A stretch of DNA of 64,000 nt, taken from an uncultured Chloroflexia bacterium. GTDB lineage: Bacteria; Chloroflexota; Limnocylindria; Limnocylindrales; CSP1-4. The translations under genes and the position numbers were made by a program. The stretch is taken from positions 86,454-150,453 of the forward strand of contig CAVVNQ010000004.1 in assembly GCA_963749705.1 (NCBI GenBank), written 5' to 3'. How positions within the stretch are numbered: position 1 is the first letter of the stretch; each line of letters starts with the position of its first letter. Under the pieces are notes generated by a model. The model was not told where the DNA came from. It did not search any database and saw only the letters and a program-made list of their open reading frames with translations. Positions 18,912 through 64,000 of the stretch are shown piece after piece.

Positions 18912-19759
18912 GGATCGACACCCCCATGGCCGAAAGCTCGTCGTCCGCGACCACTACGGCATCGGCTTCCTCCTGGGCGCCTTCGCCGGCATCGACGACG
19001 ACGACCTCGGGGACCGCATCCCGGAGGATGCCCAGGGCCTCGTCCGTCCAGCCCACTGTCGGTAACCACGACATCCGCCTGGTCGAGACGCGCGATCGTC
19101 GCGATCCCGACGACCCCCCATTTCGCGTGATCCGCGACCACGATGAGCCGGCGGCTCGCGTCGATCAGCGCCCGGTCCGTCTCGGCCTCGCTCAGGTTGG
19201 GACACGTGAACCCGGCATGCGCATCCATCCCGTGGACGCCCATGAACGCGAGATCGAGGTGGACGGTACGAATCTGGGCGACGGCGAACGGCCCGACCAG
19301 CGCCTCCGAGCGGGTGCGTACGCCGCCGGTGAGGATCACCGTCTGGTCGCGCCGCCCGGTGCGGTGCAGCACGTCCGCGACCCGGATGGAGTTGGTCACG
19401 ATGGTCACGCCCGGCACCTCGGCGACCCTGCGCGCGAGCACGTGGGTGGTGGTCCCGGCCGAGATCGCGATCGACATGCCCGGCTCGACCAGCTCCACCG
19501 CGGCGGCGGCGATCGCCGACTTCTCTGCCTGCTGCAGCGAGGTCTTCGCGGTGAAGCCGGGCTCGTACGAGGCCAGCCCGGACAGCGCCGTCGCACCGCC
19601 GTGCACCTTCTCGAGCAGACCCTGCTCGTGGAGCACCTCGAGATCGCGACGAACCGTCATGTCGGAGACGTCGAGCTCCCGCGCGAGCTCGACCACGCGG
19701 ACCGCGCCCGACGCGCGGACGCGATCGAGGATGAGTGCCTGACGCTGGCGGGCGAGCAT
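18901..19759 (-). CDS. DeoR-family transcriptional regulator; apparent +1 frameshift near 19030-19050, so a possible pseudogene or sequencing error
   Basis: N-terminal [36 protein letters not shown] and sugar-binding domain up to VVVTDSGLD. The conserved C-terminus ([21 protein letters not shown]...SIRAN*) continues in a different frame and ends at a TGA overlapping the galT GTG. Confidence 0.7.
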
Positions 19760-19911
19760 CGCTCCGGCGTTTCCTCGAGGTCGTGTCGATCGCGCTGGGC
19801 CCGACGCTCCGGCCCGCGATCGACCGACCGGCGCATTATCATCTTGATCCCGGAAAGCACCTAAGTCAACGCACTCGCACAAAAAAAGTTGTTCGAATCC
19901 GCGCGAGTCTC

Positions 19912-19940
19912 TTGACATTGCGCAATCTGGTCGCAACAAT
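19912..19940. promoter_or_regulatory. Promoter/operator candidate in the deoR/sugar-ABC divergent region: TTGACA -35-like hexamer overlapping the 10-bp perfect palindrome ATTGCGCAAT
   Basis: AT-rich intergenic region; TTGACA at 19912-19917; palindrome at 19917-19926. Confidence 0.3.
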
Positions 19941-19998
19941 CCCACTTGTCGGCCCGGCCCGCATGTGCATCGCGGAAGGTCGCGGAGGAGGTTTCAGC

Positions 19999-21369
19999 AT
20001 GGCTGATCACGACGGCCACCTTTCCGTCACGCGCCGCCAGGTGCTCAAGGGAGGCGCTGCTGTCGCGGCGCTGGGCGGAGTCTCCGCCTTCCTCGCGGCC
20101 TGCGGCTCCGCGGGCGCGACCACGGCGCCCCCGGCCTCGTCAACCGCACCGGCTGCGTCTGCTGCCCCGCCCGAGTCCATGGCCCCGGTCACGGGCAGCC
20201 TGACGTTCGGGTCGAACTACTCCGACCAGGTCCCCAAGGACGCGATGCAGGCCGTCGTCGACGCCTTCACCGCGAAGACGAGCATCACCGTCAACGTCAA
20301 CACGGTCGAGCACGGCAAGTTCCAGGACACGATCAACGCGTACCTGCAGGCGACACCGGACGATGCGTTCACCTGGTTCGCCGGCTACCGGATGCAGTTC
20401 TTCGCCGCCCAGGGCCTGGCCCTCGATATCAGCGACGTCTGGAGTCAGGTCGGCTCGAACTTCACCGACCCCATCAAGGCCGCCTCGACCGGCGCCGACG
20501 GCAAGCAGTACTTCGTCCCGTTCTACAACTACCCGTGGGGCGTCGCGTACCGGAAGAGCTTCTTCACCGAGAAGGGCTACACGGTCCCCAAGACACTCAG
20601 CGAGTTCACGGCGCTTGGCGACAAGATGAAGGCCGATGGGCTCATCCCGCTCGCGTTCGGCGATAAGGACGGCTGGCCCGCGATGGGCACGTTCGACATC
20701 CTCAACATGCGGATGAACGGCTACGACTACCACATCGGGCTCATGGCCGGCAAGGAGAAGTGGACGGACGCGAAGACCAAGGCCGTGTTCCAGAAGTGGG
20801 CGGAGCTGCTCCCCTACTTCGATCCGCAACCGTTGGGCAAGACCTGGCAGGAGGCCTGCCAGGACATGCTCAGCAATAAGGCCGGCATGTACTTCCTCGG
20901 CACCTTCCTGGGCGAGCAGGCAACCGACCCGGCTGTCCATGACGATCTGGACATGTTCCCGTTCCCGGTCTTCGGGAACGAGTACGACAGCGAGATGGCG
21001 ATCGACGCCCCGATCGACGGGTTCATGGTGGCCGCGAAGGCGGTCAACGTGGACCAGGCGAAGGCGTTCCTGGAGTACCTGGCGACCGGCGAGGCCGAGG
21101 GCATCTTCCTCAAGTCGAGCCCCAACAACGTGTTTGTCGGCAAGGACGGCGACACGAGCACCTACACGGCGTGGCAGACGACGGCGGCTGGGATCCTCGC
21201 CGGATCCAACAAGCTCGCCCAGTTCATGGACCGGGACACCAGGCCGGACTTCGCGGGCGCGAACGGGATGCAGGGGTTCATCCAGAACTTCCTGGGCGAC
21301 CCGTCGCAGGACCTGGACAAGTTCCTGTCCGGCATCCAGGACTTCTACGACAGCCTGCCGCCGCAGTGA
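19999..21369 (+). CDS. Sugar ABC transporter substrate-binding lipoprotein (family 1 SBP; TAT signal)
   Basis: TRRQVLKG twin-arginine motif and LAACG lipobox; GGAGGAGG ribosome-binding site; extracellular solute-binding fold similarity. Confidence 0.8.
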   Translation: MADHDGHLSVTRRQVLKGGAAVAALGGVSAFLAACGSAGATTAPPASSTAPAASAAPPESMAPVTGSLTFGSNYSDQVPKDAMQAVVDAFTAKTSITVNVNTVEHGKFQDTINAYLQATPDDAFTWFAGYRMQFFAAQGLALDISDVWSQVGSNFTDPIKAASTGADGKQYFVPFYNYPWGVAYRKSFFTEKGYTVPKTLSEFTALGDKMKADGLIPLAFGDKDGWPAMGTFDILNMRMNGYDYHIGLMAGKEKWTDAKTKAVFQKWAELLPYFDPQPLGKTWQEACQDMLSNKAGMYFLGTFLGEQATDPAVHDDLDMFPFPVFGNEYDSEMAIDAPIDGFMVAAKAVNVDQAKAFLEYLATGEAEGIFLKSSPNNVFVGKDGDTSTYTAWQTTAAGILAGSNKLAQFMDRDTRPDFAGANGMQGFIQNFLGDPSQDLDKFLSGIQDFYDSLPPQ

Positions 21370-21400
21370 TCACCAGCTGAGGCCAACGAACGAGCGCCCC

Positions 21401-22411
21401 ATGACGCAGTCCGTTCCGCAGAGCGCCCCGCCGGCCAGCACCGGCGGGGCGTCCCTGTCCCAGGGCCCATCGGCCACGGGTCCGCGTCGCTCACGGCGGC
21501 GGTTCAGCCTGCTCACGCGTCGCGACAAGGTGACCCTGGCGCTCATGGTCGGGATCCCGGCCTTCATCCACATCTTCCTGATCTGGCTGCCGACCCTGGG
21601 CTCGATCATCCTGTCATTCACCGACTGGAACGGCATCGGCGGGCTGGACAAGATCAAGTTCGTCGGGCTCAAGAACTACGACACTCTGGTCAACCTCTAC
21701 CAGCCGTTCTGGCCTGCGCTCCAGAACAACATCATCTGGCTGGTGGTGTTCCTGTTCATCGCCACGCCGCTGGGCATGCTGATGGCCGTGATCCTGGACC
21801 AGAACATCCGGGGCACCCGGATCTACCAGAGCGTGCTGTACATGCCGGTCGTGCTGTCACTGGCGATCGTCGGCTTCATCTGGGAGCTGATCTACTCCCC
21901 CGGCCAGGGGTTCATCAACAACATGCTGGTCCTGGTCACCGGCGACCAGCGGTGGGTCACATCGGGCACCACGATCGACTGGCTGGGGACCCGCGGGCTC
22001 AACTTCGCCGCCGTGATGGTCGCCGCCAGCTGGCGCCACGTCGGCTACATCATGGTCCTCTACCTGGCGGGGCTGAAGAGCGTGGACAACACACTCCGGG
22101 AGGCGGCCTCGATCGACGGTGCGAACGCCCGCCAGACGTTCTTCCGGGTGGTGTTCCCGGTCCTCGCGCCGATCAACGTCGTGGTCCTGGTGGTGACCGT
22201 GATCGAGTCGCTGCGCGCGTTCGACATCGTGTACATCATCAACAAGGGCCTCAACGGCCTCGGTCTGCTGTCGGTCCTGATCACCACGAACCTGCTGGGT
22301 GAGGCGAGCCTGGTCGGGTTCGGGTCCGCGATCGCGGTGATCCTGCTGCTGATCTCGATCGGCCCGATCAGCTTCTACCTGTACCGGGTGCTGCGCGAGG
22401 AGCCGGCGTGA
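21401..22411 (+). CDS. Sugar ABC transporter permease (MalF/UgpA-type)
   Basis: Six-transmembrane MalF-like permease with an EAA-type loop region. Confidence 0.85.
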   Translation: MTQSVPQSAPPASTGGASLSQGPSATGPRRSRRRFSLLTRRDKVTLALMVGIPAFIHIFLIWLPTLGSIILSFTDWNGIGGLDKIKFVGLKNYDTLVNLYQPFWPALQNNIIWLVVFLFIATPLGMLMAVILDQNIRGTRIYQSVLYMPVVLSLAIVGFIWELIYSPGQGFINNMLVLVTGDQRWVTSGTTIDWLGTRGLNFAAVMVAASWRHVGYIMVLYLAGLKSVDNTLREAASIDGANARQTFFRVVFPVLAPINVVVLVVTVIESLRAFDIVYIINKGLNGLGLLSVLITTNLLGEASLVGFGSAIAVILLLISIGPISFYLYRVLREEPA

Positions 22412-23310
22412 CCGCGGCCACGCTCCCGCACGCCCAGGCCACCGTCGCCAGGAAGAAGGGGCGTCGGCCGAAGTACGGCACCCACGCGTTCCTGATCGCG
22501 ATGTGCGTGCTGTGGATCTTCCCGCTCGCGTGGACGATCTACACCGCGTTCCGGCCCTACGGCGAGACGGCCCGGCTGGGCTACGTGTCGGTCGGCGGTG
22601 CCTACAACCTCGACAACTTCTTCAACGCCGCCAAGGGGATGGACCTGTGGCTGCACCTGTTCGACACGCTGATCGTGGTCGTGCCGGCGATGATCCTGGT
22701 CCTGTTCTTCGCGTCCATGATCGCGTTCGCGGTGTCGCGCTACAGCTTCCGGTTCAACGTCGCGATGCTGATGCTGTTCACGGCCGGCAACCTGCTGCCC
22801 CAGCAGGTCGTGATCACCCCGCTGTACCGGATGTACCTCGCGCTGCCGCTGTTCTCGCCGCTGGCCGACCGCGGGATCTGGTACGACACGTTCTTCGGGA
22901 TGATCGCGATCCATATTGCGTTCCAGCTCGGGTTCTGCACGTTCGTGCTGTCCAACTACTTCAAGCAGGTTCCCAAGGAGATCAACGAGGCGGCAGTGAT
23001 GGACGGGGCGTCCGTGTGGAAGACCTACTGGTCCGTGCTCCTGCCGCTCACCCGCCCGGCGCTGGCGGCGCTTGCCACGCTCGAGTTCACATGGATCTAC
23101 AACGACTTCTTCTGGGGCCTCCTGCTCATGCGGACGGGCGCCAAGTTCCCGATCACCCCGGCCCTCAGCCAGCTGTCGGGCCAGTTCTTCACCGACAACA
23201 ACCTGCTCGCGGCGGGGGCGCTTCTCGTTGCGTTGCCGACGCTGATCGTGTACTTCGCGCTCCAGAAGCACTTCGTCGCCGGCCTGACCCTGGGCTCGAC
23301 CAAGGGCTGA
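22408..23310 (+). CDS. Sugar ABC transporter permease (MalG/UgpE-type)
   Basis: ATGA overlap with the upstream permease; EAA loop EAAVMDGASVWKTYWSVLLPL. Confidence 0.85.
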   Translation: MTAATLPHAQATVARKKGRRPKYGTHAFLIAMCVLWIFPLAWTIYTAFRPYGETARLGYVSVGGAYNLDNFFNAAKGMDLWLHLFDTLIVVVPAMILVLFFASMIAFAVSRYSFRFNVAMLMLFTAGNLLPQQVVITPLYRMYLALPLFSPLADRGIWYDTFFGMIAIHIAFQLGFCTFVLSNYFKQVPKEINEAAVMDGASVWKTYWSVLLPLTRPALAALATLEFTWIYNDFFWGLLLMRTGAKFPITPALSQLSGQFFTDNNLLAAGALLVALPTLIVYFALQKHFVAGLTLGSTKG

Positions 23311-23356
23311 CATGCGACCCCCGGCCACCTGGGCCGGGTCGAGGAGGAACCGCACG

Positions 23357-26300
23357 ATGTCGCCCGCGCCGTGGGCCGACCCGGAGCTGACCGGCCGTGG
23401 CCGGCTGCCGATGCATGCCGTCCCCCACCTCGACCGGCTCGAGCTCGACGGGACCTGGCGGTTCCAGCTGCTCCACCGGCCGGACGATCCGGTCGGCGAC
23501 GGCGACTCCTGGCGCGAGATCGACGTCCCGGGTTGCTGGACGATGCAGGACACCTGGGATGGCCCGATCTACACCAACGTCCAGATGCCGTTCCCCGACC
23601 GGCCGCCGGCCACGCCCGAGGAGAACCCGACGGGCGTCTACGAGCGCTCGTTCGAGGTGCCGGCCGCGTGGGCGGACCGTCGGATCGTGCTCCACGTCGG
23701 AGCTGCAGAGAGCGTGCTCGTCGCGCAGCTCAACGGCGTCGAGGTGGGCATCAGCAAGGACTCGCACCTGGCCGCCGAGTTCGAGATCAGCGGCCTGGCT
23801 GCGACCGGGCGCCAACGACCTGCGGCTGACCGTCGTCAAGTGGTCCGACGCGTCGTTCATCGAGGACCAGGACCAGTGGTGGCACGGCGGGATCACCCGC
23901 TCTGTGTTCCTGTACGCGACCGGTCCGGTGCATCTGGCCGATCTCCGAATCGACACCGGGCTGGACCCGGATCTCGCGACCGGGACGCTGGAGCTCGAGG
24001 TCGCGCTGGGCTGGCCCGATGGCTCGGCGCTGGAGCCCGGCTGGCTGGTGGAGGCCGCGATCGAGGGCGTCGCGGCGCCGCTGGTCGCGGTCGTGCCGGA
24101 CGCACCCACGGCCGATCGCGGTCCGGGCGCGTTCGTGGTGCCGGGGCCGCCCCGGCGCGGGATCCTCGACCTCCAAAGCCTCAACGCATCGGGCACGCTC
24201 ACCGACCCGGAGGACCAGGCGCGATGGCGGGAGGCGGAAGCGGTGGTCCGGCCGCCCCGCGTCGGCCGCGCACGGCTCGGCGCCCGGATCGACGGCGTGA
24301 CGCCGTGGTCCGCGGAGGTGCCCGCGCTGCGGACGCTGAGCGTCGTACTCCGCGCGCCGGACGGCAAGGTCACGGAGCGGATCGAGCGCCCGATCGGCTT
24401 CCGGCGGATCGAGGTTCGCGGTGTCGAACTGCTGGTCAACGGGCGGGCCGTGCTCATCCGCGGCGTCAACCGCCACGACTTCGACCGCCGGACCGGAAGG
24501 GTGGTGTCGGCCGAGGACATGCTCGCCGATGTGATCGCGATGAAGCGGTGGGGCTTCAACGCGCTGCGCACCTCGCATTACCCCAACGACCCGTACCTGC
24601 TCGACGTGTGCGACGAGCTGGGGCTGTACGTCATCGACGAGGCGGACATCGAGTCCCACGGCTGGTACGACGACGTGTGCCACGACCCTCGCTACCGGGC
24701 GGCGTTCGTGGACCGGGTCGCGCGGATGATCGAACGCGACCGGCACCACCCCTCGATCATCTCCTGGTCGCTGGGCAACGAATCGGGCTACGGCGCCAAC
24801 CATGACGCGGCCGCCGGCTGGGCGCGTAGGGCGGACCCCTCGCGGCCGCTCCACTACGAGGGCGCGATCCGGTTCGACTGGACCAGCGCCCAGACGGCGA
24901 GCGACCTCACCTGCCCGATGTACCCGCCCATCTCGGCGATCGTCGCGCACGCCCGGTCAGGCCTCCAGCGGCACCCGCTGATCATGTGCGAGTTCAGCCA
25001 CGCGATGGGCAACAGCAACGGCACGCTGGCCGAGCACTGGGACGCGATCGAGGCCACGCCCGGGCTCCAGGGCGGGTTCATCTGGGAGTGGCGCGACCAC
25101 GGCCTCGACCAGCTGCTGCCCGACGGGACGGTGCGCGCCGCCTACGGCGGCGACTTCGGCGACGTGCCCAACGACGGGACGTTCGTGCTCGACGGGATGG
25201 TGTTCCCGGACCGGCGGCCAAAGCCCGCGATGTTCGAGCACATGCACCTCGCGTCTCCGGTCCGGGCCGCGACCGACGACACCGCCATCGCCGCCGCGCG
25301 CGAGGGACGAGCCGCCCTCGAGAACCGGGGCGAGTTCCGCGACAACGGCTGGCTGCGCGCCACCTGGGAGGTGACCGTCGACGGCGAGCCGGTCACCGGC
25401 GGCGACCTGCCGCTGCCCTCGATCGCCCCGGGTGACCGGGCCGAGGTGACCATCCCCGGCTGGCGCCTGCCACCGGAGGGCGGCGAACGCTGGCTCACCC
25501 TGCGGTTCCTGACCGCCGACGCCACCGGATGGGCGCCGGCGGGCCACGAGATGGGCTGGGCACAGGTGCCGCTCGATGCGGCAACCGGGCCCGGCGCCGC
25601 CGCCTCGACGGCGGCGGGCTGGACCGGCGGCGTCGTCCTGAACGAAGCGGGGCAGCTCCTCCTCCCCGCGTTCGCGGCGCCGCCGGCCCTGTCCCTGTGG
25701 CGGGCGCCCACCGACAACGACCGGATCGGCGGCATGGCGCAGCGCTGGGCCGGCTGGGGACTGGCGAGCCTGACCCGTCGCCTGGAGAGCATCGAGCGCG
25801 CGGCCGATGCGGTGACGGTCCGGTCGACGTGGACGACCGGGACCGGGATCGAGCTGGCGCACGTCCAGCGGATGGCGGTCGCGCCCGACGGCCGGATCCG
25901 TGTCGATGAGGCGGTCGAGGTGCCGGCGATCCTCGACGACCTGCCGCGGGTGGGGACCGTGCTCGAGCTGGCCGCCGGCCACGAGGACCTCGAATGGTTC
26001 GGTCGCGGGCCGCACGAGACGTACCCCGACCGCCGGCGCGGCGGGCAGGTCGGCCGATGGCGGTCGACGGTGACGGACGCGGCGACGCGCTACCTGCGGC
26101 CGCAGGAGAACGGCGGGCACGCCGACACGCGCTGGCTGCGCATCTCCGGACGCGGCGCCGGGGTCCGGCTCGACCTCGACCGGCCGCGCCAGGTCTCGGT
26201 CACGCACCTGCGGGCGGTCGACCTCGACGCGGCGGCCCATGACGACGAGCTGCGACCGTGCCCCGAGACGATCGTCCATCTCGATGCCGCGCATCGTGGC

Positions 26301-26405
26301 GTGGGCACCGCCAGCTGCGGGCCGGATACCCTCGAGCCGTACGTCCTGCGCCCGGGCACGTACCGCTGGGCGTGGACGATCTCGACGGAGACCACCCCCG
26401 CATGA
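23357..26405 (+). CDS. lacZ: Beta-galactosidase (GH2, LacZ-like); apparent single-base insertion frameshift near 23790-23805
   Basis: N-terminal part (IYTNVQMPFP, ENPTGVYER) in one frame; remainder (WSLGNESGYG, MCEFSHAMGNSNG, AYGGDFGDVPNDGTFVLDGMVFPDRRPKP) in the +1 frame. The junction EISGL/RPGANDLRLTVVKWSD matches E. coli [21 protein letters not shown]. Confidence 0.8.
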
Positions 26406-26418
26406 GGATCCGCCCGAC

Positions 26419-37641: not shown

Positions 37642-38650
37642 ACGCGGGGCGCGCGTGACGACCGTCGCTGCCCCGGTTCGCGGCGCCTCGGATCCGCGCC
37701 TGCTCGTTCGCGTCGCGCGGATGTACTACGGCATGGCGCTGACCCAGGAGGAGATCGGCGCGAGGCTCGGTCTGAGCCGGTTCAAGGTCGGCAGGCTGCT
37801 GGACCGGGCGGTCCGCGAGTCGATCGTGCGGATCGAGATCGTCCACCCCGCCGCCCGGCTGGTCGAGATCGAGGAGCAGCTGGTCGCCCGCTTCGGGCTG
37901 CGCGCGGCGGTCGTCGCCGACGCCGGGTCCGGTCCGGTCACCGCGGAGGGGTCGGTCGAGGCCGCGACCGCCGTCGCGCGGGAGGCGGTGGCCAGGGCTG
38001 CCGCCCGGTATCTCGCCGAGATCCGACCGACGGGCGCGATCGGCGTGTCGTGGGGCCGGACGATGCTCGAGCTGGCCCGTGCCCTGGAGCCGGGCTGGAC
38101 GACCGCGACCGAGATCGTCCAGCTCAACGGGGCGACGTCACGCTCGGCGACGCCGACGCGTGCCGGCGAGATCGTGGACCGGTTCGGGGTCACCAGCGGC
38201 GGATCGATCCGGCTCATGCCCGCGCCGGCGATCGTGGGGTCGGCCGCGCTGCGGACCGCGCTCGAGGCGGACCCGTCCGTGGGCGACACGCTGCAGGCGG
38301 CCCGGCGGGCGCCGTTCGCCGTGTTCAGCCTCGGCATCCCGGAGCCCGGCAGCGTCCTCGTGGAGTCCGGGTTCGTGGCGCCCGCGGACCGGAAGCTCCT
38401 GCGCCGGGCGGGCGCGGTCGGCGACATCCTGGGCCGGTTCCTCGCACCCGACGGCCGGATCGCGCTGCCGGACCTCGACCAGCGCACGGTCGGCCTGCCG
38501 CTCGACGAGCTCGCGGCCAAGGACCACACCATCGGGCTCGCCGCCGGACCCGGTCGCGGTCCCATCGCGCTCGCGGCCATCCGCGCGGGCTGCGTGAACA
38601 CCCTGATCACCGACGAAGGAACGGCTGACTGGCTGGTTGCGCATGGCTGA
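37625..38650 (+). CDS. SorC/DeoR-type sugar-phosphate-binding transcriptional regulator
   Basis: N-terminal HTH ARMYYGMALTQEEIGARLGLSRFKVGRLL and a C-terminal sugar-binding domain; first gene of the BMC operon. Confidence 0.8.
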   Translation: MYAHEQRGARVTTVAAPVRGASDPRLLVRVARMYYGMALTQEEIGARLGLSRFKVGRLLDRAVRESIVRIEIVHPAARLVEIEEQLVARFGLRAAVVADAGSGPVTAEGSVEAATAVAREAVARAAARYLAEIRPTGAIGVSWGRTMLELARALEPGWTTATEIVQLNGATSRSATPTRAGEIVDRFGVTSGGSIRLMPAPAIVGSAALRTALEADPSVGDTLQAARRAPFAVFSLGIPEPGSVLVESGFVAPADRKLLRRAGAVGDILGRFLAPDGRIALPDLDQRTVGLPLDELAAKDHTIGLAAGPGRGPIALAAIRAGCVNTLITDEGTADWLVAHG

Positions 38651-40745: not shown

Positions 40746-40791
40746 CACCCACCACCAATACCGGCAATCACAACGGCGAAGGAGAGGATCG

Positions 40792-41100: not shown

Positions 41101-41158
41101 CGTTCGCACCAGGGGCCGCGGTCGCAGCGCGATCGCGGCCCGGACCCGGGAGGAAGCC

Positions 41159-41446: not shown

Positions 41447-41449
41447 CCG

Positions 41450-42910: not shown

Positions 42911-42912
42911 CC

Positions 42913-43503: not shown

Positions 43504-43504
43504 G

Positions 43505-54305: not shown

Positions 54306-54308
54306 CCC

Positions 54309-54662: not shown

Positions 54663-54828
54663 CCGGGGCTTCACCCTGGCCCGGTCGAGGCTCCGGGCCG
54701 GGCGACCGAACGGGGGCCGCGTGCGGCTGCGTGCTATTCTCGGCCGTCCGACCGGGTTCGGGTGACGTGGCTCGCGTCACGCCCGCGTCCCCCGTCTCGC
54801 GCCCGGCGGGCACGCCTGCGAGAGGATC

Positions 54829-57000
54829 ATGACCGCCGTTCGACCCGCTCCCGGACCCCGCGCCGCGTCCCGCGGCCGACGGCGGGCGGTGCACGACCAT
54901 AAGGCCCCGATCCTCAACCGCGAGCTGTCGTGGATCGAGTTCAACGCCCGCGTGCTCCACGAGGCCCGCGACACGCGCAACCCGATCCTCGAGCGCGTCA
55001 AGTTCCTCGCGATCTTCGCGTCCAACCTCGACGAGTTCTTCCAGGTTCGCGTGTCCGGGTTGCGCCGGCAGGACCTGGCCGGCTCGCAGCACCTGTCCTC
55101 GGACGGCCTGACCCCGGCCAAGCAGCTGGACGCGATCCGGGCCCGGGTCCGGGACCTCGTCGCCGAGCATTCCCTGATCTTCGCCACGATCCGCGAGGAG
55201 CTCGCCGGCGAGGGCGTCGAGATCGTGGACTACGACGACGTTCCCGAGCACCACGACACGCTCCGGCGCCGGTTCCACGACGAGATCTTCCCGGTCCTGA
55301 CGCCGCTCGCCGTGGATCCGGGACACCCGTTCCCGTACATCAGCACCCTGTCGCTCTCGATCGCGGTCGGGCTGCGGGACCCCGAGACGGGCGAGAAGCG
55401 GTTCGCGCGGGTCAAGATCCCGCCGATCCTGCCCCGCCTGTTCGAGGTCGAGCGCGACCGGTTCGTGCTCCTGGACCAGGTCATCGAGGCCAACCTCGAC
55501 GAGCTGTTCCGGGGCATGGAGATCCTCGAGACGCACCTGTTCCGGGTCACCCGCGACGCGGACATCGCGATCGAGGAGGACGAGGCGGACGACCTGCTGC
55601 TCGCGATCGAGGAAGAGGTCCGGCGGCGGCGGTTCGGCGAGGCGGTCCGGCTCGAGGTCGAGCGCTCGATGCCGGAGCTGACGCGCAAGATCCTGATCAA
55701 CGGCATCGGGCTGCGCGAGGACGACAGCTTCGAGGTCGCCGGGATGATGGACCTCACGGCGCTGTGGCAGCTCGCCGAGCTCGACCGTCCCGACCTCAAG
55801 GCGCCGACCTTCACGCCGGTCGTGCCCCAGCGGCTGCTGCCGCCGGACGAGGACGAGCCGGTCGACGTGTTCGCGCAGATGCGGGCCGGGGACCTGCTCC
55901 TCCATCACCCGTACGACTCGTTCACCGCCTCGGTCGAGCGGTTCATCTCGCAGGCCGCGGACGACCCCCTGGTGCTGACCATCAAGCAGACCCTGTACCG
56001 GACGTCGGGCGACTCGCCCATCGTCAAGGCGCTGATCCGCGCGGCGGAGCAGGGCAAGCAGGTCGTGGTCCTGGTCGAGATCAAGGCGCGCTTCGACGAG
56101 GAGGTCAACATCGTCTGGGCGCGCAAGCTTGAGCAGGCGGGCGCCCACGTCGTGTACGGGCTGGTCGGCCTCAAGACCCACTGCAAGGTCGCGCTCGTCG
56201 TCCGGCGCGAGGGCAACGGGCTCCGGCGCTACGTCCACATCGGCACCGGCAACTACAACTCGCGGACGGCGCGCCTGTACGTGGATCTCGGCCTGCTCTC
56301 GTGCCGCGAGGAGCTGGGCGCGGACGTCACGGACCTGTTCAACGTGCTCACCGGGCTGTCACGCCAGAGCGTGTTCCGCCGCCTGCTCGTGGCGCCGATG
56401 ACGCTCCGGTCGCGCTTCCTCGAGCTGGTCGAGCGGGAGGCGGCGAATGCCCGTGCGGGCCAGCAGGCCCGGATCGTGATCAAGGTCAACTCGCTGGTCG
56501 ACACCCAGGTGGTCGAGGCGCTGTACGAGGCGGCGCGGGCGGGCGTCGAGATCGAGTGCATCATCCGGGGCGCGTGCTGCCTGGTCCCCGGCGTCCCCGG
56601 TGCCTCCGAGCGGGCGCGCGCGCGCTCGATCATCGGCGAGTTCCTGGAGCACTCGCGGATCTGGATGTTCGCCAACGGCGGGCGCCCTGAGTGGTACATC
56701 GGGTCGGCGGACCTGATGGAGCGCAACCTCGATCGGCGGGTCGAGGTCGTGACCCCGGTCGAGGATCACGAGGCGCAGGTCCGGCTCGCGCGGATCATCG
56801 AGGTCATGCTGGCCGATGACCGCCGCTCGTGGCAGCTGCAGTCCGACGGCCGATGGGTCCGGACCGAGGTGCTGACGTCGGCCGCGGGCGAGATCGACAC
56901 GTTCGCCGTGCTCAAGCAGGATGCCGCGGCCGCCGCAGCCGCCGCGGACGTGCCCAGACGGCCGCACTCGAACGTCGGATCGATGGACCCGCGCGCGTGA
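54829..57000 (+). CDS. ppk: Polyphosphate kinase 1
   Basis: PPK1 N-terminal motif RNPILERVKFLAIFASNLDEFFQVR and duplicated PLD-like C-terminal domains. Confidence 0.9.
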   Translation: MTAVRPAPGPRAASRGRRRAVHDHKAPILNRELSWIEFNARVLHEARDTRNPILERVKFLAIFASNLDEFFQVRVSGLRRQDLAGSQHLSSDGLTPAKQLDAIRARVRDLVAEHSLIFATIREELAGEGVEIVDYDDVPEHHDTLRRRFHDEIFPVLTPLAVDPGHPFPYISTLSLSIAVGLRDPETGEKRFARVKIPPILPRLFEVERDRFVLLDQVIEANLDELFRGMEILETHLFRVTRDADIAIEEDEADDLLLAIEEEVRRRRFGEAVRLEVERSMPELTRKILINGIGLREDDSFEVAGMMDLTALWQLAELDRPDLKAPTFTPVVPQRLLPPDEDEPVDVFAQMRAGDLLLHHPYDSFTASVERFISQAADDPLVLTIKQTLYRTSGDSPIVKALIRAAEQGKQVVVLVEIKARFDEEVNIVWARKLEQAGAHVVYGLVGLKTHCKVALVVRREGNGLRRYVHIGTGNYNSRTARLYVDLGLLSCREELGADVTDLFNVLTGLSRQSVFRRLLVAPMTLRSRFLELVEREAANARAGQQARIVIKVNSLVDTQVVEALYEAARAGVEIECIIRGACCLVPGVPGASERARARSIIGEFLEHSRIWMFANGGRPEWYIGSADLMERNLDRRVEVVTPVEDHEAQVRLARIIEVMLADDRRSWQLQSDGRWVRTEVLTSAAGEIDTFAVLKQDAAAAAAAADVPRRPHSNVGSMDPRA

Positions 57001-58721
57001 CCGATGTCGCCATCCCGCGACCCGGCGGCGTGGTCGAGGTCGAGCTCAAGTTCCGCATGTCCGGGACGGGCGCCGGGACCCGGCTGATCGCCGCCGACGA
57101 CCTGGCCGGGTTCGCCGCGCTGGCGCCCGCGGCGACGGTCCGGCACGAGGACCGGTACGTCGACACGGCCGACGGCCGGCTGGCGGCGGCCGGCTACGCG
57201 GGACGGTTCCGGTCGGCGGGCGATGTCACGGTGCTCACGCTCAAGTCCCTCCGCTCTGACGCCGAGGACGGCGCGCTCCACCGGCGCGAGGAGCTGGAGG
57301 GCCCGGCGATCGCCGAGGTCCCACCCGATGCGTGGCCCGACTCCGCGGCTCGCACCGCCGTGCTCGAGCTGCTGGGCGGTGCGCCGCTGAGCGACCTCGT
57401 GACCGTCCGGCAGACACGGCACAAGCGAACGTACGGGCGCGAGGGGGTCGTCGTCGAGCTGTCCGTCGATGACGTGGAGATCGTGGCCGGCGAGCGGGTG
57501 CTGGACCGGTTCGCCGAGCTCGAGGTGGAGCTCATCGAGGGCGGCGAGGCGGCGCTCGAACCGCTCGCTGACCTGCTCGCCGAGGTCGAGGAGCTGGTCC
57601 CCGCCGAATCGTCGAAGCTCGAACGGGCGCTGGAGGCCGTCGCCCACGACCGGGCGGGCACGGGCGACCTTCGCGAGGCACCCCAGGGCCCCCGGACGAG
57701 CGTGGCTGCCGGACCGGTCGAGGTGCCCGCGTCGGGCACGGACGTGACCGCGACCCAGGCGCCGGAGCCGGCCGTCCCGCGGATCACCGTCCCCAAGGCG
57801 CCGGGTGTCATCTCCGAGGACCACCTCGCCGAGGCGGGTCGGAAGGTGCTCCGGTTCCACCTGGCCCGGATGATCGCCCGCGAGCCCGGCACCCGCGTCG
57901 GCCGCGACGACGCGGAGCTGCACGCGATGCGCGTGGCGACGCGGCGACAGCGCGCCGCCTGGCGCGTGTTCGGCGAGGCGTTCGACCGCAAGGCGACGGC
58001 CCGCCACCGGGTCCGGCTGCGCGAGGTCGCCCGGGACCTGGGTGCGGTCCGGGACCTCGATGTGCTGATCGGGGCCGCCGAGATGCATCGTGCCCAGCTG
58101 CCGGCACGCGAGGCGGCGGCCTTCGACCGGCTGATCCAGGGGTGGCGCGGGCAGCGCGAAGGTGCCCGCGAGGTCCTGCTCCGGGAGCTCGACTCGGGCC
58201 GCTACCGCAAATGGGTCGACGGGTACGTGGAGTTCGTCCAGGCCGAGGGAGCGGGCGCTCTCCCGGTCGGGCCGACCCAGCCCCACCGCGTGCGGGACAC
58301 GATGCCGTCGCGGATCTGGGCGGCGTACGAGGGCGTTCGCGCCTACGAGCCCGTGCTCAGGTGGGCCGACGTGACCACCCTCCACGACCTCCGGATCGCG
58401 GCCAAGTGGCTGCGCTACACGCTGGAGTTCGTGCGCGAGGCGCTGGGACGTGACGCCGGCCCGGTCATCGAGAAGATCGTCGCGCTCCAGGACCACCTCG
58501 GCTGGCTCCACGACGCGGACGTGGCGGCGGCCCTTGCGCGCCAGTACCTGGTGGAGCACGCGGGCGACCTCACGGAGCTCGAGAGCGCGGCGATCGGCCG
58601 CTATCTCGTCGATCGGGAGCGGGAGCTCGCGCGGCTCCGGCGGACCGTCGGCGGACCCTGGCGCGGGTTGTCGAGCCTCGCCTTCCGTCGCGCGCTCGGC
58701 CGGCTCGTGGCGGGCCTGTAG
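56997..58721 (+). CDS. CYTH-domain plus CHAD-domain protein (polyphosphate-associated)
   Basis: N-terminal CYTH (EVELKFRM ... ELEVELIEG) and C-terminal CHAD helices (HAMRVATRRQRAAWRVFGEAF); GTG start overlapping the ppk stop (GTGA). Confidence 0.75.
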   Translation: MTDVAIPRPGGVVEVELKFRMSGTGAGTRLIAADDLAGFAALAPAATVRHEDRYVDTADGRLAAAGYAGRFRSAGDVTVLTLKSLRSDAEDGALHRREELEGPAIAEVPPDAWPDSAARTAVLELLGGAPLSDLVTVRQTRHKRTYGREGVVVELSVDDVEIVAGERVLDRFAELEVELIEGGEAALEPLADLLAEVEELVPAESSKLERALEAVAHDRAGTGDLREAPQGPRTSVAAGPVEVPASGTDVTATQAPEPAVPRITVPKAPGVISEDHLAEAGRKVLRFHLARMIAREPGTRVGRDDAELHAMRVATRRQRAAWRVFGEAFDRKATARHRVRLREVARDLGAVRDLDVLIGAAEMHRAQLPAREAAAFDRLIQGWRGQREGAREVLLRELDSGRYRKWVDGYVEFVQAEGAGALPVGPTQPHRVRDTMPSRIWAAYEGVRAYEPVLRWADVTTLHDLRIAAKWLRYTLEFVREALGRDAGPVIEKIVALQDHLGWLHDADVAAALARQYLVEHAGDLTELESAAIGRYLVDRERELARLRRTVGGPWRGLSSLAFRRALGRLVAGL

Positions 58722-58723
58722 GC

Positions 58724-60736
58724 CTAGCCCTCCCAGCCGCCGGCCAGGACGGGCAACCGGTCCCGCCAGGCACGACCCGCGATGGCACTCACCAGGATCG
58801 CCCCTTCCCGGATGCCCGCCTCGGACACGCGCAGGCGGTCGACGCCGTACCGGTCCAGGATCGCGTCCACGATCACGGCGCCGGCCGGCAGGATCCTGGC
58901 CCGGGTGTGGCGGAGCGTGTGACGCGCCGCGGTGTCGGCACTGGTCCCGACCGTCAGCATCGCGAGCGCGATCGTCACGCGGCGGCTGGTGAGGATGCTG
59001 TCGGACGTCCGTCCCGGCAGGATCCGCAACAGGTTGGACGCGGTTCCGCCGACCGCGACCATCTCCTCGGGACGGGCGTCGGGCGCGTCGGCGATGACGC
59101 GTCGAGCGTCGATGACCATGGCGTCGATCTCGTCCATCGTGGGCGGATCGGATCGAACGTGATCCTGCGTCAGGCGCGCTGATCCGAGCGGCAGGCCGAT
59201 GCACCGGGCGGGCTCGCCCGGCGAGGAGACGACGATCTCGGAGCTGCCGCCGCCGATGTCGACGACCATGATCTCGCGACCGGCGGCCCGTCCCATCGTG
59301 ACGCCCGCCAGCGTGAGCATGCCCTCTTCACGGTGGTCGAGGACGTACAGCGGCAGGCCAGTACGCGCCTCGACGTCGCGGACGAGGATCGCGGCATCGG
59401 CGGCGCGCCGGATCGGCTCGGTGCCCATCAGCACGACCTCGACGGCACCGAGGTTCCGGGCGGCCTCCGCGTATGTCGCCAGGGCAGCGACGAGGTCATC
59501 GCGCGCGGTCGCACCGAGGAAGCCATCCGTCGCCACGCGATCGCCCAGCCCGAGGAACACCAATTCGTCGAGCATCGGATCGAGCTGGTGGCCCCCGGCC
59601 GCGGCGACCAGGAGATGGACGCTGTTGGCGCCGATGTCGATGGATGCACCGACGACGAGCTCGGGACCGGTCACCAGCAGCGGCCGGGAGATCTCGATCA
59701 CGGTCACCGACGGTCCCTGGGGCTCCAACCCGGCGGCGGCTGCCGGCGGCAGGTCAGCTGCGAGCTCCGGCTCGGCGGCGGTGGACGGTTCGGGGGCGGC
59801 GGACGGTTCGTCCGGCGCGACGGGGGCCACGTCGTAGGCGTCCGGAACATCGTCATCGGGACTCGACATGTACGGCGGCGCGACCTGGGCGTCAAAGGCG
59901 AAGCCGGTTCGATCGGGTGACATGGCGAATGGCGGCTCGACCGGCCACGGATCGGACGGCGTTGCGAACGCCGGCTGCCGTGGTCCTGGCTCGGGTTCGG
60001 GTTCCGCCTCGAGGGGCGGCTCAGGTTCGAGCTCGAGGGCCGGCTCGGGCTCAGACTCCGGTTCCGGCTCCAGGGCGAGTTCGGGCTCGGGTTCGGGCTC
60101 GAGGGCGAGTTCGGGCTCCGGCTCGATGGCAGGTTCGGGCTCGAGGGCGAGTTCGGGCTCCGGCTCGATGGCCGGTTCGGGCTCGAGGGCAGGTTCGGGT
60201 TCGGGCTCGGGTTCGGGCTCGGGCTCGGGCGCCGATCCGACCTCGGGTTCCGATTCGACCTCGGCCTCCGGTTCGGGGTCGCGCTCGCGCCGCCCGACAC
60301 GGTCGACGATCCGCGACGCAGCGGGCTCAGCGGTCTGGCGGACGAGATCGGCGACCTCCTGGAGCACCGCTTCGGCAGCTGCGGCCATCTCGCCCGATTG
60401 CTCTGCCTGCTCCGGTACGGGCTCGGGCGCGGGCACGGCGACCCGCGCCGCGCGCTCTCGCTTGACCCGCCGAGCATCCGCATGCACATCGACCGCCGTT
60501 GCGGCGACGTCCGCGGCCGTTCGTTCGATCCTGCGGGCTGCTTTCGCCGCCCGCTTTGCTGCCTTGGCCGCCCGTTGCGCCGCCTTCTCGGCGGCGGCCG
60601 CCTCCCGCCGCGCCGCCCTGGCCCGCCGTTTCGCTTCCTTCCTTATGGCCTTCCGTTCCGCCTTGCGCGCGGCCTTGCGGGCGGCTTTCGCCTTCTTCGC
60701 GGCGCGCCTGCCGGCCTTTGCCTCGCGCTTCGACAT
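58724..60736 (-). CDS. ppx: Exopolyphosphatase (Ppx/GppA family) with an about 340-aa intrinsically disordered N-terminal extension (Lys/Ala-rich basic segment plus acidic Glu-Pro repeat segment)
   Basis: C-terminal about 330 aa are a Ppx/GppA domain ([30 protein letters not shown]). The in-frame upstream part encodes [18 protein letters not shown]... then [24 protein letters not shown] repeats. Start set at the ATG giving MSKREAKAG; an alternative ATG lies at 60922. Confidence 0.75.
59990..60245. repeat. Hexanucleotide-periodic tandem repeat (GGCTCG/GGTTCG units, higher-order units of about 48 bp) encoding the Glu-Pro repeat of the ppx extension
   Basis: Direct reading of the sequence; the mirror-frame GS-rich ORF on the plus strand is its artefact. 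Confidence 0.7.
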
Positions 60737-61049
60737 TGCGTCGTCGGCCGGCTCCTGGTCCGGCGTCTCGCGGACGCCGCCCGCGCGCGGCAACCCTGTG
60801 CCCGTCGGCGGCACGTCCAGACCACCCGGCGCGCCCGCAAACGGGTTGTCGAGCCCGCTCGTCTCGCCGCTCCGACGCCAGTCGGTCCTGTCGTGATCAC
60901 CCACCGCACAAGTCTGCCCCACCCGCGGCCACCCTGCGAGGCCGGCGTGACCGCATGACGTGCTGCGGCGCCCGATCGCTCACGTTCGATGACCGACCCG
61001 GAACGGGACCGCGATTCGTGCACGGATCCCGAGCGGCATCCACCGAAGC

Positions 61050-61093
61050 GTTAACCCGCACTTAACGGTCCGCACATCAGCCGTTGACGGCCG
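61050..61093. promoter_or_regulatory. Four consecutive 11-nt direct-repeat units (GTTAACCcgca CTTAACGgtcc GCACATCagcc GTTGACGgccg) resembling actinobacterial PHO boxes, upstream of pstS
   Basis: 11-nt periodicity with GTT(A/C)AC(C/G) cores; located 77-120 nt upstream of the pstS GTG, in the pstS/ppx divergent region. Confidence 0.4.
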
Positions 61094-61169
61094 GGCTCGA
61101 ACGTGAGAGCGGCAAGAGACGGAATCACTGCACGGCGCGTGGCGCCGGCCAACCCACGGAGGAGTCCTG

Positions 61170-62321
61170 GTGACCATCACCCCTGCGAGGCGCCTCGGCG
61201 CGATCGCCCTCGCCGCGACCATGTTCGTCGCCGCCTGCGGCGGCTCCGGCGCCACCACCGCGCCCACCGACCAGTCGGCGGCAAGCATGGCTCCCGGATC
61301 CTCGGGCGACGCGATGACCGGACCCGAGCCCGGCACGGCGAGCCTCGTGCTCCAGGGCGCCGGTGCCACCTTCCCGGCCCCCCTGTACCAGGTCTGGTTC
61401 GAGAAGTACACGGAGCTGCACGGCAACATCCAGTTCGACTACCAGGCGATCGGCTCCGGCGGTGGCATCAAGGCCATCACCGAGCAGACCGTGGACTTCG
61501 GCGCATCCGATGCAGCGATGAAGGACAGCGAGATCTCCGCGCTCCCGGCCGGCGTCACGCTGCTCCATGTCCCGACCGCGCTGGGCGCCGTCGTGGTGAT
61601 CTTTAACGTCCCGGGCGTGACCGACCTGAACCTCGACGCCGACGCGGTGGCCGGGATCTTCCTGGGCACGATCACCAACTGGAACGACCCGAAGATCGCG
61701 GCGCTCAATCCCGGCGTCACGCTCCCCGACCTCGCGGTCACGGTCGTCCATCGCAGCGACGGCTCGGGCACGACCAACGCCTTCACCACCTACCTCGACA
61801 CGGTCAGCCCTGACTGGCACGCGGGTCCCGGTGCGGGCAAGGAGGTCAACTGGCCGGTGGGCATCGGTGCCCCGGGCAACGACGGCGTCGCCGGCGGCGT
61901 CAAGCAGACCGACGGGACGGTGGGCTACGTCGAGCTCAACTACGCCGCGCAGGCCGGGCTGACGTCGGCCAAGGTCAAGAACGCCGACGGCCAGTTCGTC
62001 GCCGGATCGACCGCCGGCGTCACCGCTGCCGCGGAAGCCGCCGCCACCACCTTCCCCGCCGACTTCCGCCAGGCCCCGATCATCAACGGTGCGGGCGCCT
62101 CGACCTATCCGATCGCTTCCTACACCTACCTGCTGATCCCGGTCGACTGGACCGACGCTGACAAGGCGCAGGCGATGGTCGCGTTCACCTACTGGGCGCT
62201 GACCGACGGCCAGGCGGACGAGGACGGGCTGGGCTACGCACCGCTCCCCGCCCCGATCCAGCAGAAGTCGCTCGACGAGCTCCACAAGGTCATGGCCAAC
62301 GGGTCCGCCGTCTGGCCCTGA
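61170..62321 (+). CDS. pstS: Phosphate ABC transporter substrate-binding lipoprotein
   Basis: Lipobox FVAACGG and PstS motifs (GAGATFPAPLYQVW, HRSDGSGTT); GTG start with a GGAGG ribosome-binding site. Confidence 0.85.
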   Translation: MTITPARRLGAIALAATMFVAACGGSGATTAPTDQSAASMAPGSSGDAMTGPEPGTASLVLQGAGATFPAPLYQVWFEKYTELHGNIQFDYQAIGSGGGIKAITEQTVDFGASDAAMKDSEISALPAGVTLLHVPTALGAVVVIFNVPGVTDLNLDADAVAGIFLGTITNWNDPKIAALNPGVTLPDLAVTVVHRSDGSGTTNAFTTYLDTVSPDWHAGPGAGKEVNWPVGIGAPGNDGVAGGVKQTDGTVGYVELNYAAQAGLTSAKVKNADGQFVAGSTAGVTAAAEAAATTFPADFRQAPIINGAGASTYPIASYTYLLIPVDWTDADKAQAMVAFTYWALTDGQADEDGLGYAPLPAPIQQKSLDELHKVMANGSAVWP

Positions 62322-62346
62322 GCCAATCCCTCGCACTCCCTCCTCC

Positions 62347-62382
62347 GCCGACCGGTCCCGCATCTCGGAGCGGGACCGGTCG
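62347..62382 (+). terminator. Perfect 14-bp stem hairpin (CCGACCGGTCCCGC-N8-GCGGGACCGGTCGG) immediately downstream of pstS; a terminator or attenuator, with no U-tract
   Basis: Direct reading of the sequence; positioned between pstS and pstC, as is common for differential pstS expression. Confidence 0.45.
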
Positions 62383-62444
62383 GTCCCGTTCGTCGGCACT
62401 ACCCTTGGCAACGTGACCCTTCCCCGCCATTCGAGGATCACCGC

Positions 62445-63407
62445 ATGACGACGCTCCAGGTCCCCGGACGACGGCTTGCCTCCGGCTCGGGCAAGGTCGC
62501 CGACCGCCTGTTCCGTGGCGGATCGGGCCTCGCCGCGTATGCGGTCGTCGGGATCCTGATCCTGCTGGCGGCGATGCTGACGCTGAGCAGCACCGAGGCC
62601 CTGACGCACTTCGGGATCGTCGAGTTCATCACGGGCACGACCTGGGACCCGGTCAACCGGATCTTCGGTGCGCTGCCGTACATCGTCGGCACGCTCCTGT
62701 CCGCCGCGATCGCGCTGGTCATCGCCACACCGATCGCGCTGCTCACCGCGATCTACCTCTCGGAGCTCGCGCCGCGCCGGGTCGCGATCCCGCTCACGTT
62801 CCTGGTCGAGCTGATCGCAGCGGTCCCATCCGTCGTCATCGGCCTGTGGGGCGTGTTCGTGCTGACGCCGTTCCTCAAGCTGACCGTCGAGTCCTTCCTC
62901 GTGAGCACCCTCGGCGGCTCGATCAGCATCTTCGAGGGGCCGCCGCTGGGGATCGGGCTGTTCGCCGCCGGCGTCATCCTCGCGATCATGATCCTGCCCA
63001 CCATCGTGTCCGTCTCGCGCGAGGTCATCACCTCGGTGCCGATGGCCCAGCGCGAAGCAATGTTCGCCCTCGGCGCCACGCGCTGGGAGGTGGTCACCAG
63101 GGCCGTCCTGCCGGCGGCCAGGTCGGGCATCGCCGGGGCGGTGATCCTGGGCCTGGGCCGCGCGCTGGGCGAGACGATGGCCGTGACCATGGTCATCGGC
63201 AACGCGCAGGACATCCCGACGTCGCTGTTCGACCAGTCGCAGACCATCGCGTCCAAGATCGCGACGACCTTCAACGAGGCGTCGGTCGGGCTCCAGACCT
63301 CGAGCCTCATCGCCCTCGGCCTGATCCTGCTGGTGCTGACGATCGGGCTCAACATCGTGGCCCGGTTGCTGGTGTGGCGGGTCGCCGGCGCGGTCGGCAC
63401 GGAGTGA
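62445..63407 (+). CDS. pstC: Phosphate ABC transporter permease PstC
   Basis: PstC-like six-transmembrane permease with an EAA loop region. Confidence 0.85.
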   Translation: MTTLQVPGRRLASGSGKVADRLFRGGSGLAAYAVVGILILLAAMLTLSSTEALTHFGIVEFITGTTWDPVNRIFGALPYIVGTLLSAAIALVIATPIALLTAIYLSELAPRRVAIPLTFLVELIAAVPSVVIGLWGVFVLTPFLKLTVESFLVSTLGGSISIFEGPPLGIGLFAAGVILAIMILPTIVSVSREVITSVPMAQREAMFALGATRWEVVTRAVLPAARSGIAGAVILGLGRALGETMAVTMVIGNAQDIPTSLFDQSQTIASKIATTFNEASVGLQTSSLIALGLILLVLTIGLNIVARLLVWRVAGAVGTE

Positions 63408-63411
63408 TGGC

Positions 63412-64000
63412 ATGACCGCAGGCTCCCCCGCCGTCGCTGCCCGGGGCGTGCTCAGGAGGTCGGCGTCCGATCGTCGCCGCAGCCTGGTCGACCGCACGTT
63501 CCGCGCCATCGCGCTGCTCGCAGCGATCAGCGGGATCGTGCCGCTCGCGTTCATCGTCGCGTTCGTGACGATCAACGGCATCGGTGCCCTCAACCTCGAC
63601 CTGCTGACCAGGCCGCCGAAGGCGCTTGGGCGTCGGCGGGGGTGCGCTGGCGGCGATCCTTGGCTCGCTCCAGCTGGTCGGCCTGGCCACGCTGCTGGCG
63701 GTCCCGTTCGGGATCCTCGCCGGCGTGTACGTCAACGAGTTCAGCGACCGGCGGTCCGCCCGCGTGATCCGGTTCGCGGCCGACGTCCTGGTGGGCGTCC
63801 CGTCGATCCTGGTCGGGATCTTCGTGTTCAGCTTCCTGGTGCTGCCGTTCAAGCAGTTCAACGCGTTCGCCGGCGCGGTGGCCCTGGCCGTGATCATGGT
63901 CCCGGTGATCATGCGCACGACCGAGGAGATGCTCAAGATCGTCCCCGGCACGCTCCGGGAGGCGTCGCTGTCGCTGGGCATCCCGGTCTGGCGGACGGTG
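63412..64000 (+). CDS. pstA: Phosphate ABC transporter permease PstA, 5' portion (the gene continues beyond the window); apparent +1 frameshift near 63628-63642
   Basis: PstA N-terminus in frame 1 up to LTRPPKALG. The conserved continuation GVGGGALAAILGSLQLVGLATLLAVPFGILAGVYVNEF...IMRTTEEMLKIVP is in frame 2. The junction lies at a GGCGGGGG homopolymer run. Confidence 0.75.
   Translation, partial: MTAGSPAVAARGVLRRSASDRRRSLVDRTFRAIALLAAISGIVPLAFIVAFVTINGIGALNLDLLTRPPKALGRRRGCAGGDPWLAPAGRPGHAAGGPVRDPRRRVRQRVQRPAVRPRDPVRGRRPGGRPVDPGRDLRVQLPGAAVQAVQRVRRRGGPGRDHGPGDHAHDRGDAQDRPRHAPGGVAVAGHPGLADG

Follow-up and report, generated by a model that had tools for sequence, protein, structure and literature searches.

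Surplus single bases in the deoR, lacZ and pstA genes of an uncultured Chloroflexota are very probably consensus errors of long-read metagenome assembly

The window analysed here, meaning the whole stretch of 64,000 nucleotides, is 72% GC and comes from an uncultured, Limnocylindria-like member of the Chloroflexota. It carries exactly one surplus base in each of three genes, deoR (at about 19043), lacZ (at about 23798) and pstA (63624-63630); the initial annotation had reported +1 frameshifts in these same genes, and all three are present in the window sequence. The GC content had raised the suspicion of an actinobacterial (e.g. Leifsonia-like) genome in real decay, which is ruled out by the relatives, all of them Chloroflexota/Limnocylindria MAGs. 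The closest are about 91% identical to the window in DNA; in the clusters of neighbouring proteins the nearest members come from relatives about 90-92% identical, and no further assembly of the window's species is represented there. The features concerned are the following.

17853..18911, minus strand: galT, intact, directly downstream of deoR (above the NCBIfam equivalog cut-offs NF008724.0 and TIGR00209)
18901..19759, minus strand: deoR, a DeoR/GlpR-family regulator gene (from translations, an alignment with 13 homologues and Pfam domains)
19040..19048, minus strand: deoR frameshift site, one surplus base (gene strand GACGGACGAG vs. GAC-GGCGAG or GAG-GACGAG in relatives)
20008..23310, plus strand, first start approximate: sugar ABC transporter genes upstream of lacZ (substrate-binding protein and two permeases), intact (from a codon-position scan and orthologous gene calls in relative L082)
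23357..26405, plus strand: lacZ, gene of a LacZ-type GH2 beta-galactosidase (from translations, tblastn and domains)
23795..23799, plus strand: lacZ frameshift site, a surplus G (CTGGCTG vs. CTGCTG or equivalent in ten relatives)
61170-62321, plus strand: pstS, intact, upstream of pstA (above the NCBIfam equivalog cut-off; exact protein on record)
62445-63407, plus strand: pstC, intact, upstream of pstA (above the NCBIfam equivalog cut-off; exact protein on record)
63412..64000, plus strand, continuing past the window end: pstA, phosphate ABC transporter permease (from translations, a relative and TIGR00974)
63624..63630, plus strand: pstA frameshift site, one surplus base (GCGCTTGGG vs. GC-CCTGGG in a relative)

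With its surplus base removed, deoR encodes a product of 285 aa, the length of its orthologues, which can be aligned over its full extent with 13 homologues; the stop codon at 18901-18903 gives the 11-nt overlap with the galT start that is also seen in relatives. Left uncorrected, the open reading frame extends to 18827 and yields 310 aa ending in junk sequence; this frameshifted protein (P0012) is already recorded for the contig that contains the window and forms a singleton cluster. At the site itself the window reads GACGGACGAG, where the two assemblies of a sister species, L082 and L083, have GAC-GGCGAG and L084 has GAG-GACGAG, so that GGAC in the window faces either GGC or GAC in the relatives, and it looks as if two alleles may have been retained side by side. 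The correction to GACGACGAG put forward in the initial annotation is one of two that fit equally well. The regulator's HTH_DeoR domain (PF08220, residues 6-59) and DeoRC domain (PF00455, residues 76-235, profile positions 2-160 of 160) are present, the latter complete, in the corrected and the as-is product alike; no NCBIfam equivalog cut-off is reached, and the assignment is to the family, not to a specific type of regulator. Because the shift lies downstream of the complete DeoRC domain, a real lesion would exchange no more than a tail of 47 aa, and the impairment of regulation once predicted for that case does not clearly follow.

In lacZ, codons 1-147 from the ATG at 23357 lie in one frame and the other 868 codons in the +1 frame, to the stop at 26405; uncorrected, the N-terminal 147 codons run into a junk open reading frame ending at 24805. 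In tblastn, each of eight lacZ homologues matches a frame-2 segment and an abutting frame-3 segment, the 7 nt between them standing for 2 residues. The window has GGCCTGGCTGCG where ten relatives in the alignment have GGCCT-GCTGCG, and removal of a single G at 23795-23799, in accord with an insertion previously placed near 23797, restores a frame of 1015 aa, the length of the closest intact homologue, P0013. The corrected product contains all of Glyco_hydro_2_N, Glyco_hydro_2_C (the TIM barrel), LacZ_4 and Bgal_small_N, as a LacZ-type GH2 beta-galactosidase should in a single chain of about 1000 aa, and in the uncorrected products Glyco_hydro_2_N is split at profile position 128 of 169. P0013, which is a 90%-identical LacZ, itself falls below the NCBIfam equivalog cut-off (708 vs. 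999 bits). The second of the sugar ABC permeases upstream of lacZ was found in the protein collection.

The pstA gene starts with the ATG at 63412 and reads in one frame for its first 71 codons, the remainder being in the +1 frame, with the switch near 63625. The indel appears as AAGGCGCTTGGGC in the window vs. AAGGC-CCTGGGC in the closest relative. The junction had earlier been assigned to a G run (GGGGG) near 63636; that run, at 63638-63642 (GGCGGGGG), is the same in the window and the closest pstA relative, and the indel is located about 10 nt upstream of it, at 63624-63630. Against TIGR00974 (PstA; cut-off 193.45), a full-length orthologue from L081 reaches 264.6 bits, and the corrected product of the window, truncated where the window ends, reaches 165.3 bits for profile positions 2-173; this match, together with its place in a pstS-pstC-pstA-pstB-phoU operon, identifies the product as PstA.

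The initial annotation had proposed comparison with related genomes as a check, and the surplus base is absent at each site from every relative compared there; eight lacZ homologues, 13 DeoR homologues and the closest pstA relative keep to a single frame across the respective sites. No further frameshift in the window came to light when GC was scanned by codon position, Pfam domains were checked for completeness and the bases were compared with those of relatives. Same-strand frame switches at about 4.57 kb (ArgR/ArgG), 41.0 kb (BMC/EutN), 43.8 kb (EutN/EutN) and 48.0 kb (acyltransferase/peptidase S9) proved to be ordinary boundaries of complete genes.

The broken genes bear none of the usual marks of disuse. 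Downstream of the shift, in the corrected frame, dN/dS is 0.20 for lacZ (868 codons) and 0.10 for pstA (124 codons), as in parts of genes that, judged from these ratios, are still under purifying selection. Relative-rate tests gave no significant excess of amino-acid change in the window lineage, no second lesion (a further stop or shift) was found in deoR, lacZ or pstA, and the operons around all three are intact, although a test for relaxed selection on these genes would miss very recent pseudogenisation.

In a census of frameshifts, 16 orthologous genes were searched against 81 related loci. The loci were classed by contig naming, those with Flye-style 'contig_N' names, most of them from Microflora Danica MAGs, being taken as Nanopore-type. 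In the orthologous coding sequence, the 34 Nanopore-type loci show 21 frameshifts over 372 kb and the 47 short-read MAG loci only 2 over 401 kb (p = 1.6e-5 for the platform difference). This amounts to roughly one frameshift per 18 kb for the former and a rate about 11 times lower for the latter in the same genes; moreover, every frameshift in the Nanopore-type loci (21/21) is +1 (p = 1e-6). For the window, the 3 frameshifts observed over about 57 kb of coding sequence compare with 3.2 expected at the Nanopore-type rate and 0.28 at the short-read rate, and 3 or more would arise at the latter with a probability of 0.003. In both rate and direction, then, the window fits the Nanopore-type set and not the short-read set. 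We infer a long-read origin for the window from this error signature, from the 314-kb contig and from an NCBI and ENA source pattern that it shares with Microflora Danica MAGs, and the assembly behind it was most likely Nanopore-only. For the Microflora Danica long-read MAGs, Flye assembly of Nanopore reads alone was followed by a single Medaka round (PMC12313526), and near-finished consensus from Nanopore data alone has been reported only from about 40-fold coverage (PMC9262707).

The errors strike different places in each assembly. In contig_10327 the genes for pstS, a CHAD-domain protein and a sorC-type regulator are broken, and in L001 those for an ABC-2 permease and an oxidoreductase, all of them intact in the window; in L023 it is deoR that is broken, at another position than in the window. 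L082 and L083, assembled from two samples of one sister species, share 99.6% identity over 23 kb. Four 1-nt indels separate them; at three of these, whichever assembly has the surplus base has a broken gene (for an ABC-2 permease, an ABC ATPase or a luciferase-like oxidoreductase), and mismatches between the two cluster beside the indels (permutation p = 0.0014). For this sister species, the one case in which it was seen, replicate assemblies of one population thus disagree at frameshift sites.

We consider it very probable, on the comparative sequence evidence, that the frame breaks in deoR, lacZ and pstA are assembly artefacts, namely errors in the consensus of a metagenome assembled from long reads, and the real organism almost certainly has all three genes intact. 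A preference for indel errors in the assembly over three real pseudogenes was expressed at the outset, and all of the comparative tests, which were made on assembled sequences, agree with it. The errors might arise where a population has strain-level variation: reads from different haplotypes would conflict, the assembler or polisher would err locally at such positions, and occasionally one base too many would be retained, giving a +1 shift of frame. Those in the window are not of the classic long-homopolymer type, since lacZ, and pstA on one reading, show extension of a two-base run only, and deoR of none. No common sequence motif or methylation site is evident at the insertions in eight base-resolved cases.

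Indel frameshifts are a known limitation of Nanopore-only genome and metagenome assemblies (PMC9262707; bioRxiv 10.64898/2026.04.03.716430; PMC12313526). As in those, single-base indels here split or truncate conserved genes at a frequency tied to platform and coverage, and their sites differ between assemblies of close relatives. The classic Nanopore indels, however, go in either direction and fall in long homopolymers, mainly in AT-rich genomes, whereas here the DNA is 72% GC, the runs are of two bases or absent and insertions alone are found. Another parallel is provided by the collapse of homologous chromosomes, which, according to one account, yields mosaic-consensus artefacts with apparent frameshifts that allele-specific assembly corrects (PMC8445201). 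The mismatch clusters beside indels and the deoR pattern, GGC/GAC to GGAC, fit this picture, but the subject of that account is a diploid eukaryote, and the mixture here would be one of co-occurring bacterial strains, acting by the mechanism suggested above.

If instead the extra bases are real, three independent recent +1 mutations would have deprived this population of functional lacZ and pstA and changed the tail of DeoR. The bases do stand in the deposited sequence, the frameshifted DeoR protein has been recorded from that very contig, and pseudogenes are possible in uncultured soil bacteria. Decaying genomes such as that of Mycobacterium leprae likewise have frameshifted conserved genes beside intact neighbours, but their genes accumulate several lesions each, by deletion and insertion alike, under relaxed selection; none of those extra lesions, deletions or signs of relaxed selection is seen here, and the pattern tracks platform. 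All three mutations would have to be very recent, given the lack of secondary lesions, the low downstream dN/dS and the absence of a rate excess, and the partner genes in each operon are intact. Real mutations would also have to occur at an equal rate and exclusively in the +1 direction in the Nanopore-type assemblies, which span many species, but not in the short-read ones, yet sequencing platform should not govern biology, and indels in bacteria are naturally biased, usually, towards deletions. This reading we hold to be unlikely. An insertion-biased mutation process in high-GC soil Chloroflexota, producing fresh +1 frameshifts in functional genes, would likewise make the extra bases real and would mean that the strain has just lost beta-galactosidase and high-affinity phosphate uptake; it is very unlikely.

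The mismatches that separate L082 from L083 beside their indels suggest strain mixtures under such sites, and the frameshift alleles might then be real in part of a mixed population and have been caught by the consensus. A consensus artefact at variable sites accounts better for the uniform direction of the 21 insertions and their dependence on platform than would true frameshift alleles taken up as consensus again and again, and such partial-population alleles appear exceedingly unlikely. That all three shifts are +1 would also suit programmed frameshifting or transcriptional slippage, by which full-length proteins would still be made. Programmed sites, however, are conserved among relatives, and here every relative (60-91% identity) has a single frame without the surplus base; the three contexts have no motif in common, and the equivalent shifts in relatives lie at unrelated positions. 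This last explanation is scarcely credible.

On the preferred reading, consensus error, the organism's galactoside cluster and its Pst phosphate transporter are most likely working and the biological consequence is small, and inferences of gene loss or metabolism from the breaks in deoR, lacZ and pstA are not warranted. For the Nanopore-type MAGs of this clade the implications are technical, in that insertions often lie beside clusters of variant sites and raise the apparent numbers of pseudogenes, split genes and singleton protein clusters, a problem that could be removed by polishing with short reads or by annotation that allows for frameshifts. Several of the recorded proteins nearest to the window's lacZ product are themselves fragments or have out-of-frame tails.

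Three single-base insertions interrupt conserved genes of the window, and platform, replicate and no-decay tests bear out the earlier preference for assembly error as the most probable account of them. The genes concerned are:

deoR: from 19759, minus strand; 285 aa after removal of one base near 19043
lacZ: ATG at 23357, end at 26405; 1015 aa after removal of one G
pstA: start at 63412; frame change near 63625

In lacZ, whose start is preceded by a GGAGGA motif, codons 1-147 lie in one frame and the remaining 868 codons in the +1 frame. Alignment breaks each of eight homologues into two adjoining segments, one in frame 2 and one in frame 3, and the 7 nt left between these for two residues mean that exactly one base is surplus; the repaired protein is as long as the closest homologue that is intact. 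Translated uncorrected, deoR yields 310 aa ending in an arginine-rich junk tail, while the corrected protein matches 13 homologues through to its final residue and stops 8 nt past the galT start codon, as it does in relatives. The proposed site in deoR stands, but the G singled out by the initial annotation is only one option, the adjacent A being equally a candidate: the window reads GGAC, against GGC or GAC in relatives. In pstA the frame does switch, but not in the suggested G run, which is identical in the closest relative (63638-63642); the indel is at 63624-63630 instead. Were the breaks real, the one in lacZ, which cuts the first GH2 domain at profile position 128 of 169, would inactivate the enzyme, and the one in pstA, which precedes the transmembrane permease domain, would likewise inactivate; the deoR shift comes after a complete DeoRC domain, with just the tail replaced, and its effect would be uncertain.

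With the repaired beta-galactosidase as query, 595 related places were found and 80 loci kept, nearly all from uncultured Chloroflexota, many of them under the labels Limnocylindrales or Limnocylindria; among species representatives, the best match has 79% protein identity. The window's own proteins are recorded from one contig of 314,203 bp, sourced from NCBI and ENA. Two ENA metagenome assemblies hold three close relatives (ERZ25039495 contig_68594 and contig_101000, and ERZ25039539 contig_10327), contigs with the window's gene order and about 91% DNA identity to it. Intact versions of deoR (285 aa), lacZ (1015 or 1019 aa) and pstA (295 aa) are present in them. Their own breaks lie in other genes, which are intact in the window: contig_10327 has broken genes for pstS, a CHAD-domain protein, a sorC-type regulator and an ABC ATPase, a proS split into two gene calls and possibly a split Ppx phosphatase gene; in contig_68594 the breaks fall in an ABC-2 permease and a luciferase-like oxidoreductase. 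In all base-resolved cases the broken assembly is one base longer than the intact one. Elsewhere, further independent +1 frameshifts occur in the ABC-2 permease and luciferase-like oxidoreductase of one related locus (L001), in deoR of another (L023), and in GH36, lacZ, galK and a permease of other Microflora Danica MAGs; four lacZ proteins on record (P0133, P0135, P0136 and P0138) are fragments or have out-of-frame ends.

Sixteen orthologous proteins of the lac/gal neighbourhood were searched against all retrieved loci, a frameshift being counted wherever a protein aligned as two adjoining pieces in different frames, and platform classes being read from contig names.

Frameshifts by platform class
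Flye-style 'contig_N' (mostly Microflora Danica MAGs): 34 loci; 21 frameshifts; 372 kb aligned; 1 per 17.7 kb
SPAdes, MEGAHIT or scaffold names (short reads): 47 loci; 2 frameshifts; 401 kb aligned; 1 per 200 kb

The rate is higher in the 'contig_N' loci (p = 1.6e-5), where all 21 shifts are +1 (p = 1e-6); of the two short-read cases, one is +1 and the other -1. For the roughly 57 kb of coding sequence in the window, the 'contig_N' rate predicts 3.2 shifts and the short-read rate 0.28 (P(>=3) = 0.003); the three present, all +1, fit the former and not the latter. The long-read Microflora Danica catalogue was assembled with Flye and a single Medaka round, on Nanopore reads alone (PMC12313526); the same group describes Nanopore-only consensus as near-finished from about 40-fold coverage, and attributes fragmented gene calls to indels (PMC9262707).

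Contig_68594 and contig_10327, from two samples, are 99.6% identical over 23 kb and thus represent one species. Between them lie 89 substitutions and four 1-nt indels; three of these indels are genic, and the gene is broken in whichever assembly has the extra base. Substitutions fall within 12 nt of three of the four, where 0.09 per indel would be expected (permutation p = 0.0014), and at one site the sequence follows one haplotype upstream and the other downstream, keeping both CCC/CCG codon variants. The window's deoR site, with its GGAC, looks the same. From these observations we infer that a surplus base is left where reads of co-occurring strains differ and the consensus step resolves the column wrongly; the data themselves show association only.

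It is possible, though unlikely, that the three breaks are real, recent pseudogenes. The genes bear no sign of decay: once the frame is corrected, dN/dS between window and relative downstream of the shift is 0.20 for lacZ, 0.10 for pstA and 0.47 for the DeoR tail, whose 47 codons are poorly conserved; relative-rate tests with L001 or L003, another related locus, as outgroup gave no significant amino-acid excess in the window lineage for lacZ or deoR; no further stops or shifts were found in the three genes; and their operon partners are intact. Recent pseudogenes would, moreover, leave unexplained the platform dependence, the exclusive direction of insertion and the disagreement of the replicate assemblies. 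Programmed frameshifting can in practice be ruled out, the shift being shared by no compared orthologue and the three sites lacking a common motif. The insertions are most probably assembly errors, a known kind of artefact; they carry little biological interest, and their practical lesson is caution with split genes in assemblies of this type.

The whole window (72.2% GC) was scanned for GC content at the three codon positions, and each same-strand frame change without an obvious gene boundary was checked; by Pfam, each suspect proved to involve complete, separate genes. Base-level comparison with close relatives (6.7-8.4, 15.3-43.8, 43.9-46.6 and 46.8-64 kb) found no further gene-breaking non-triplet indel within coding sequence, which together leaves three frameshifts among about 56 genes.

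The phosphate/polyphosphate cluster at 54778-64000 comprises polyphosphate kinase 1, a CYTH-CHAD protein, a Ppx/GppA phosphatase and pstS-pstC-pstA, and carries on in a relative with pstB and phoU. Its 732-aa phosphatase ORF (58724-60922, minus strand) has the Ppx/GppA domain confined to the C-terminal 275 residues, behind an acidic, proline-rich low-complexity repeat some 450 residues long. Within the repeat, indels relative to the related sequence are mostly multiples of 3, which suggests that it is translated. In the related locus L081 the region is cut into two ORFs by a net 2-nt difference near 59692-59750, and either assembly could be right.

About 6.9 kb (8441-15346) is missing from the sister species contig (L082/L083). 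The segment encodes two large AAA_16-TPR-GerE (LuxR-type STAND) regulators (about 8528-11491 and 12017-15319) and, on the opposite strand, a small SCO4226-like protein; a similar regulator occupies the same position in L084, another related locus.

A bacterial microcompartment locus at 37643-44663, conserved in the sister species (L085), encodes a SorC-type regulator, RpiB, a DeoC-family aldolase, CsoS1D-like, BMC-H and tandem-BMC shell proteins, three EutN/CcmL vertex proteins, an aldehyde dehydrogenase and a NUDIX hydrolase, and resembles the sugar-phosphate-utilising type. Where its second and third EutN genes meet, the window has about 72 nt extra relative to L085 (43791-43863), so that the second EutN ends in a basic tail of 26 aa, rich in proline, glycine and arginine; the codon-position signal fades along these extra nucleotides.
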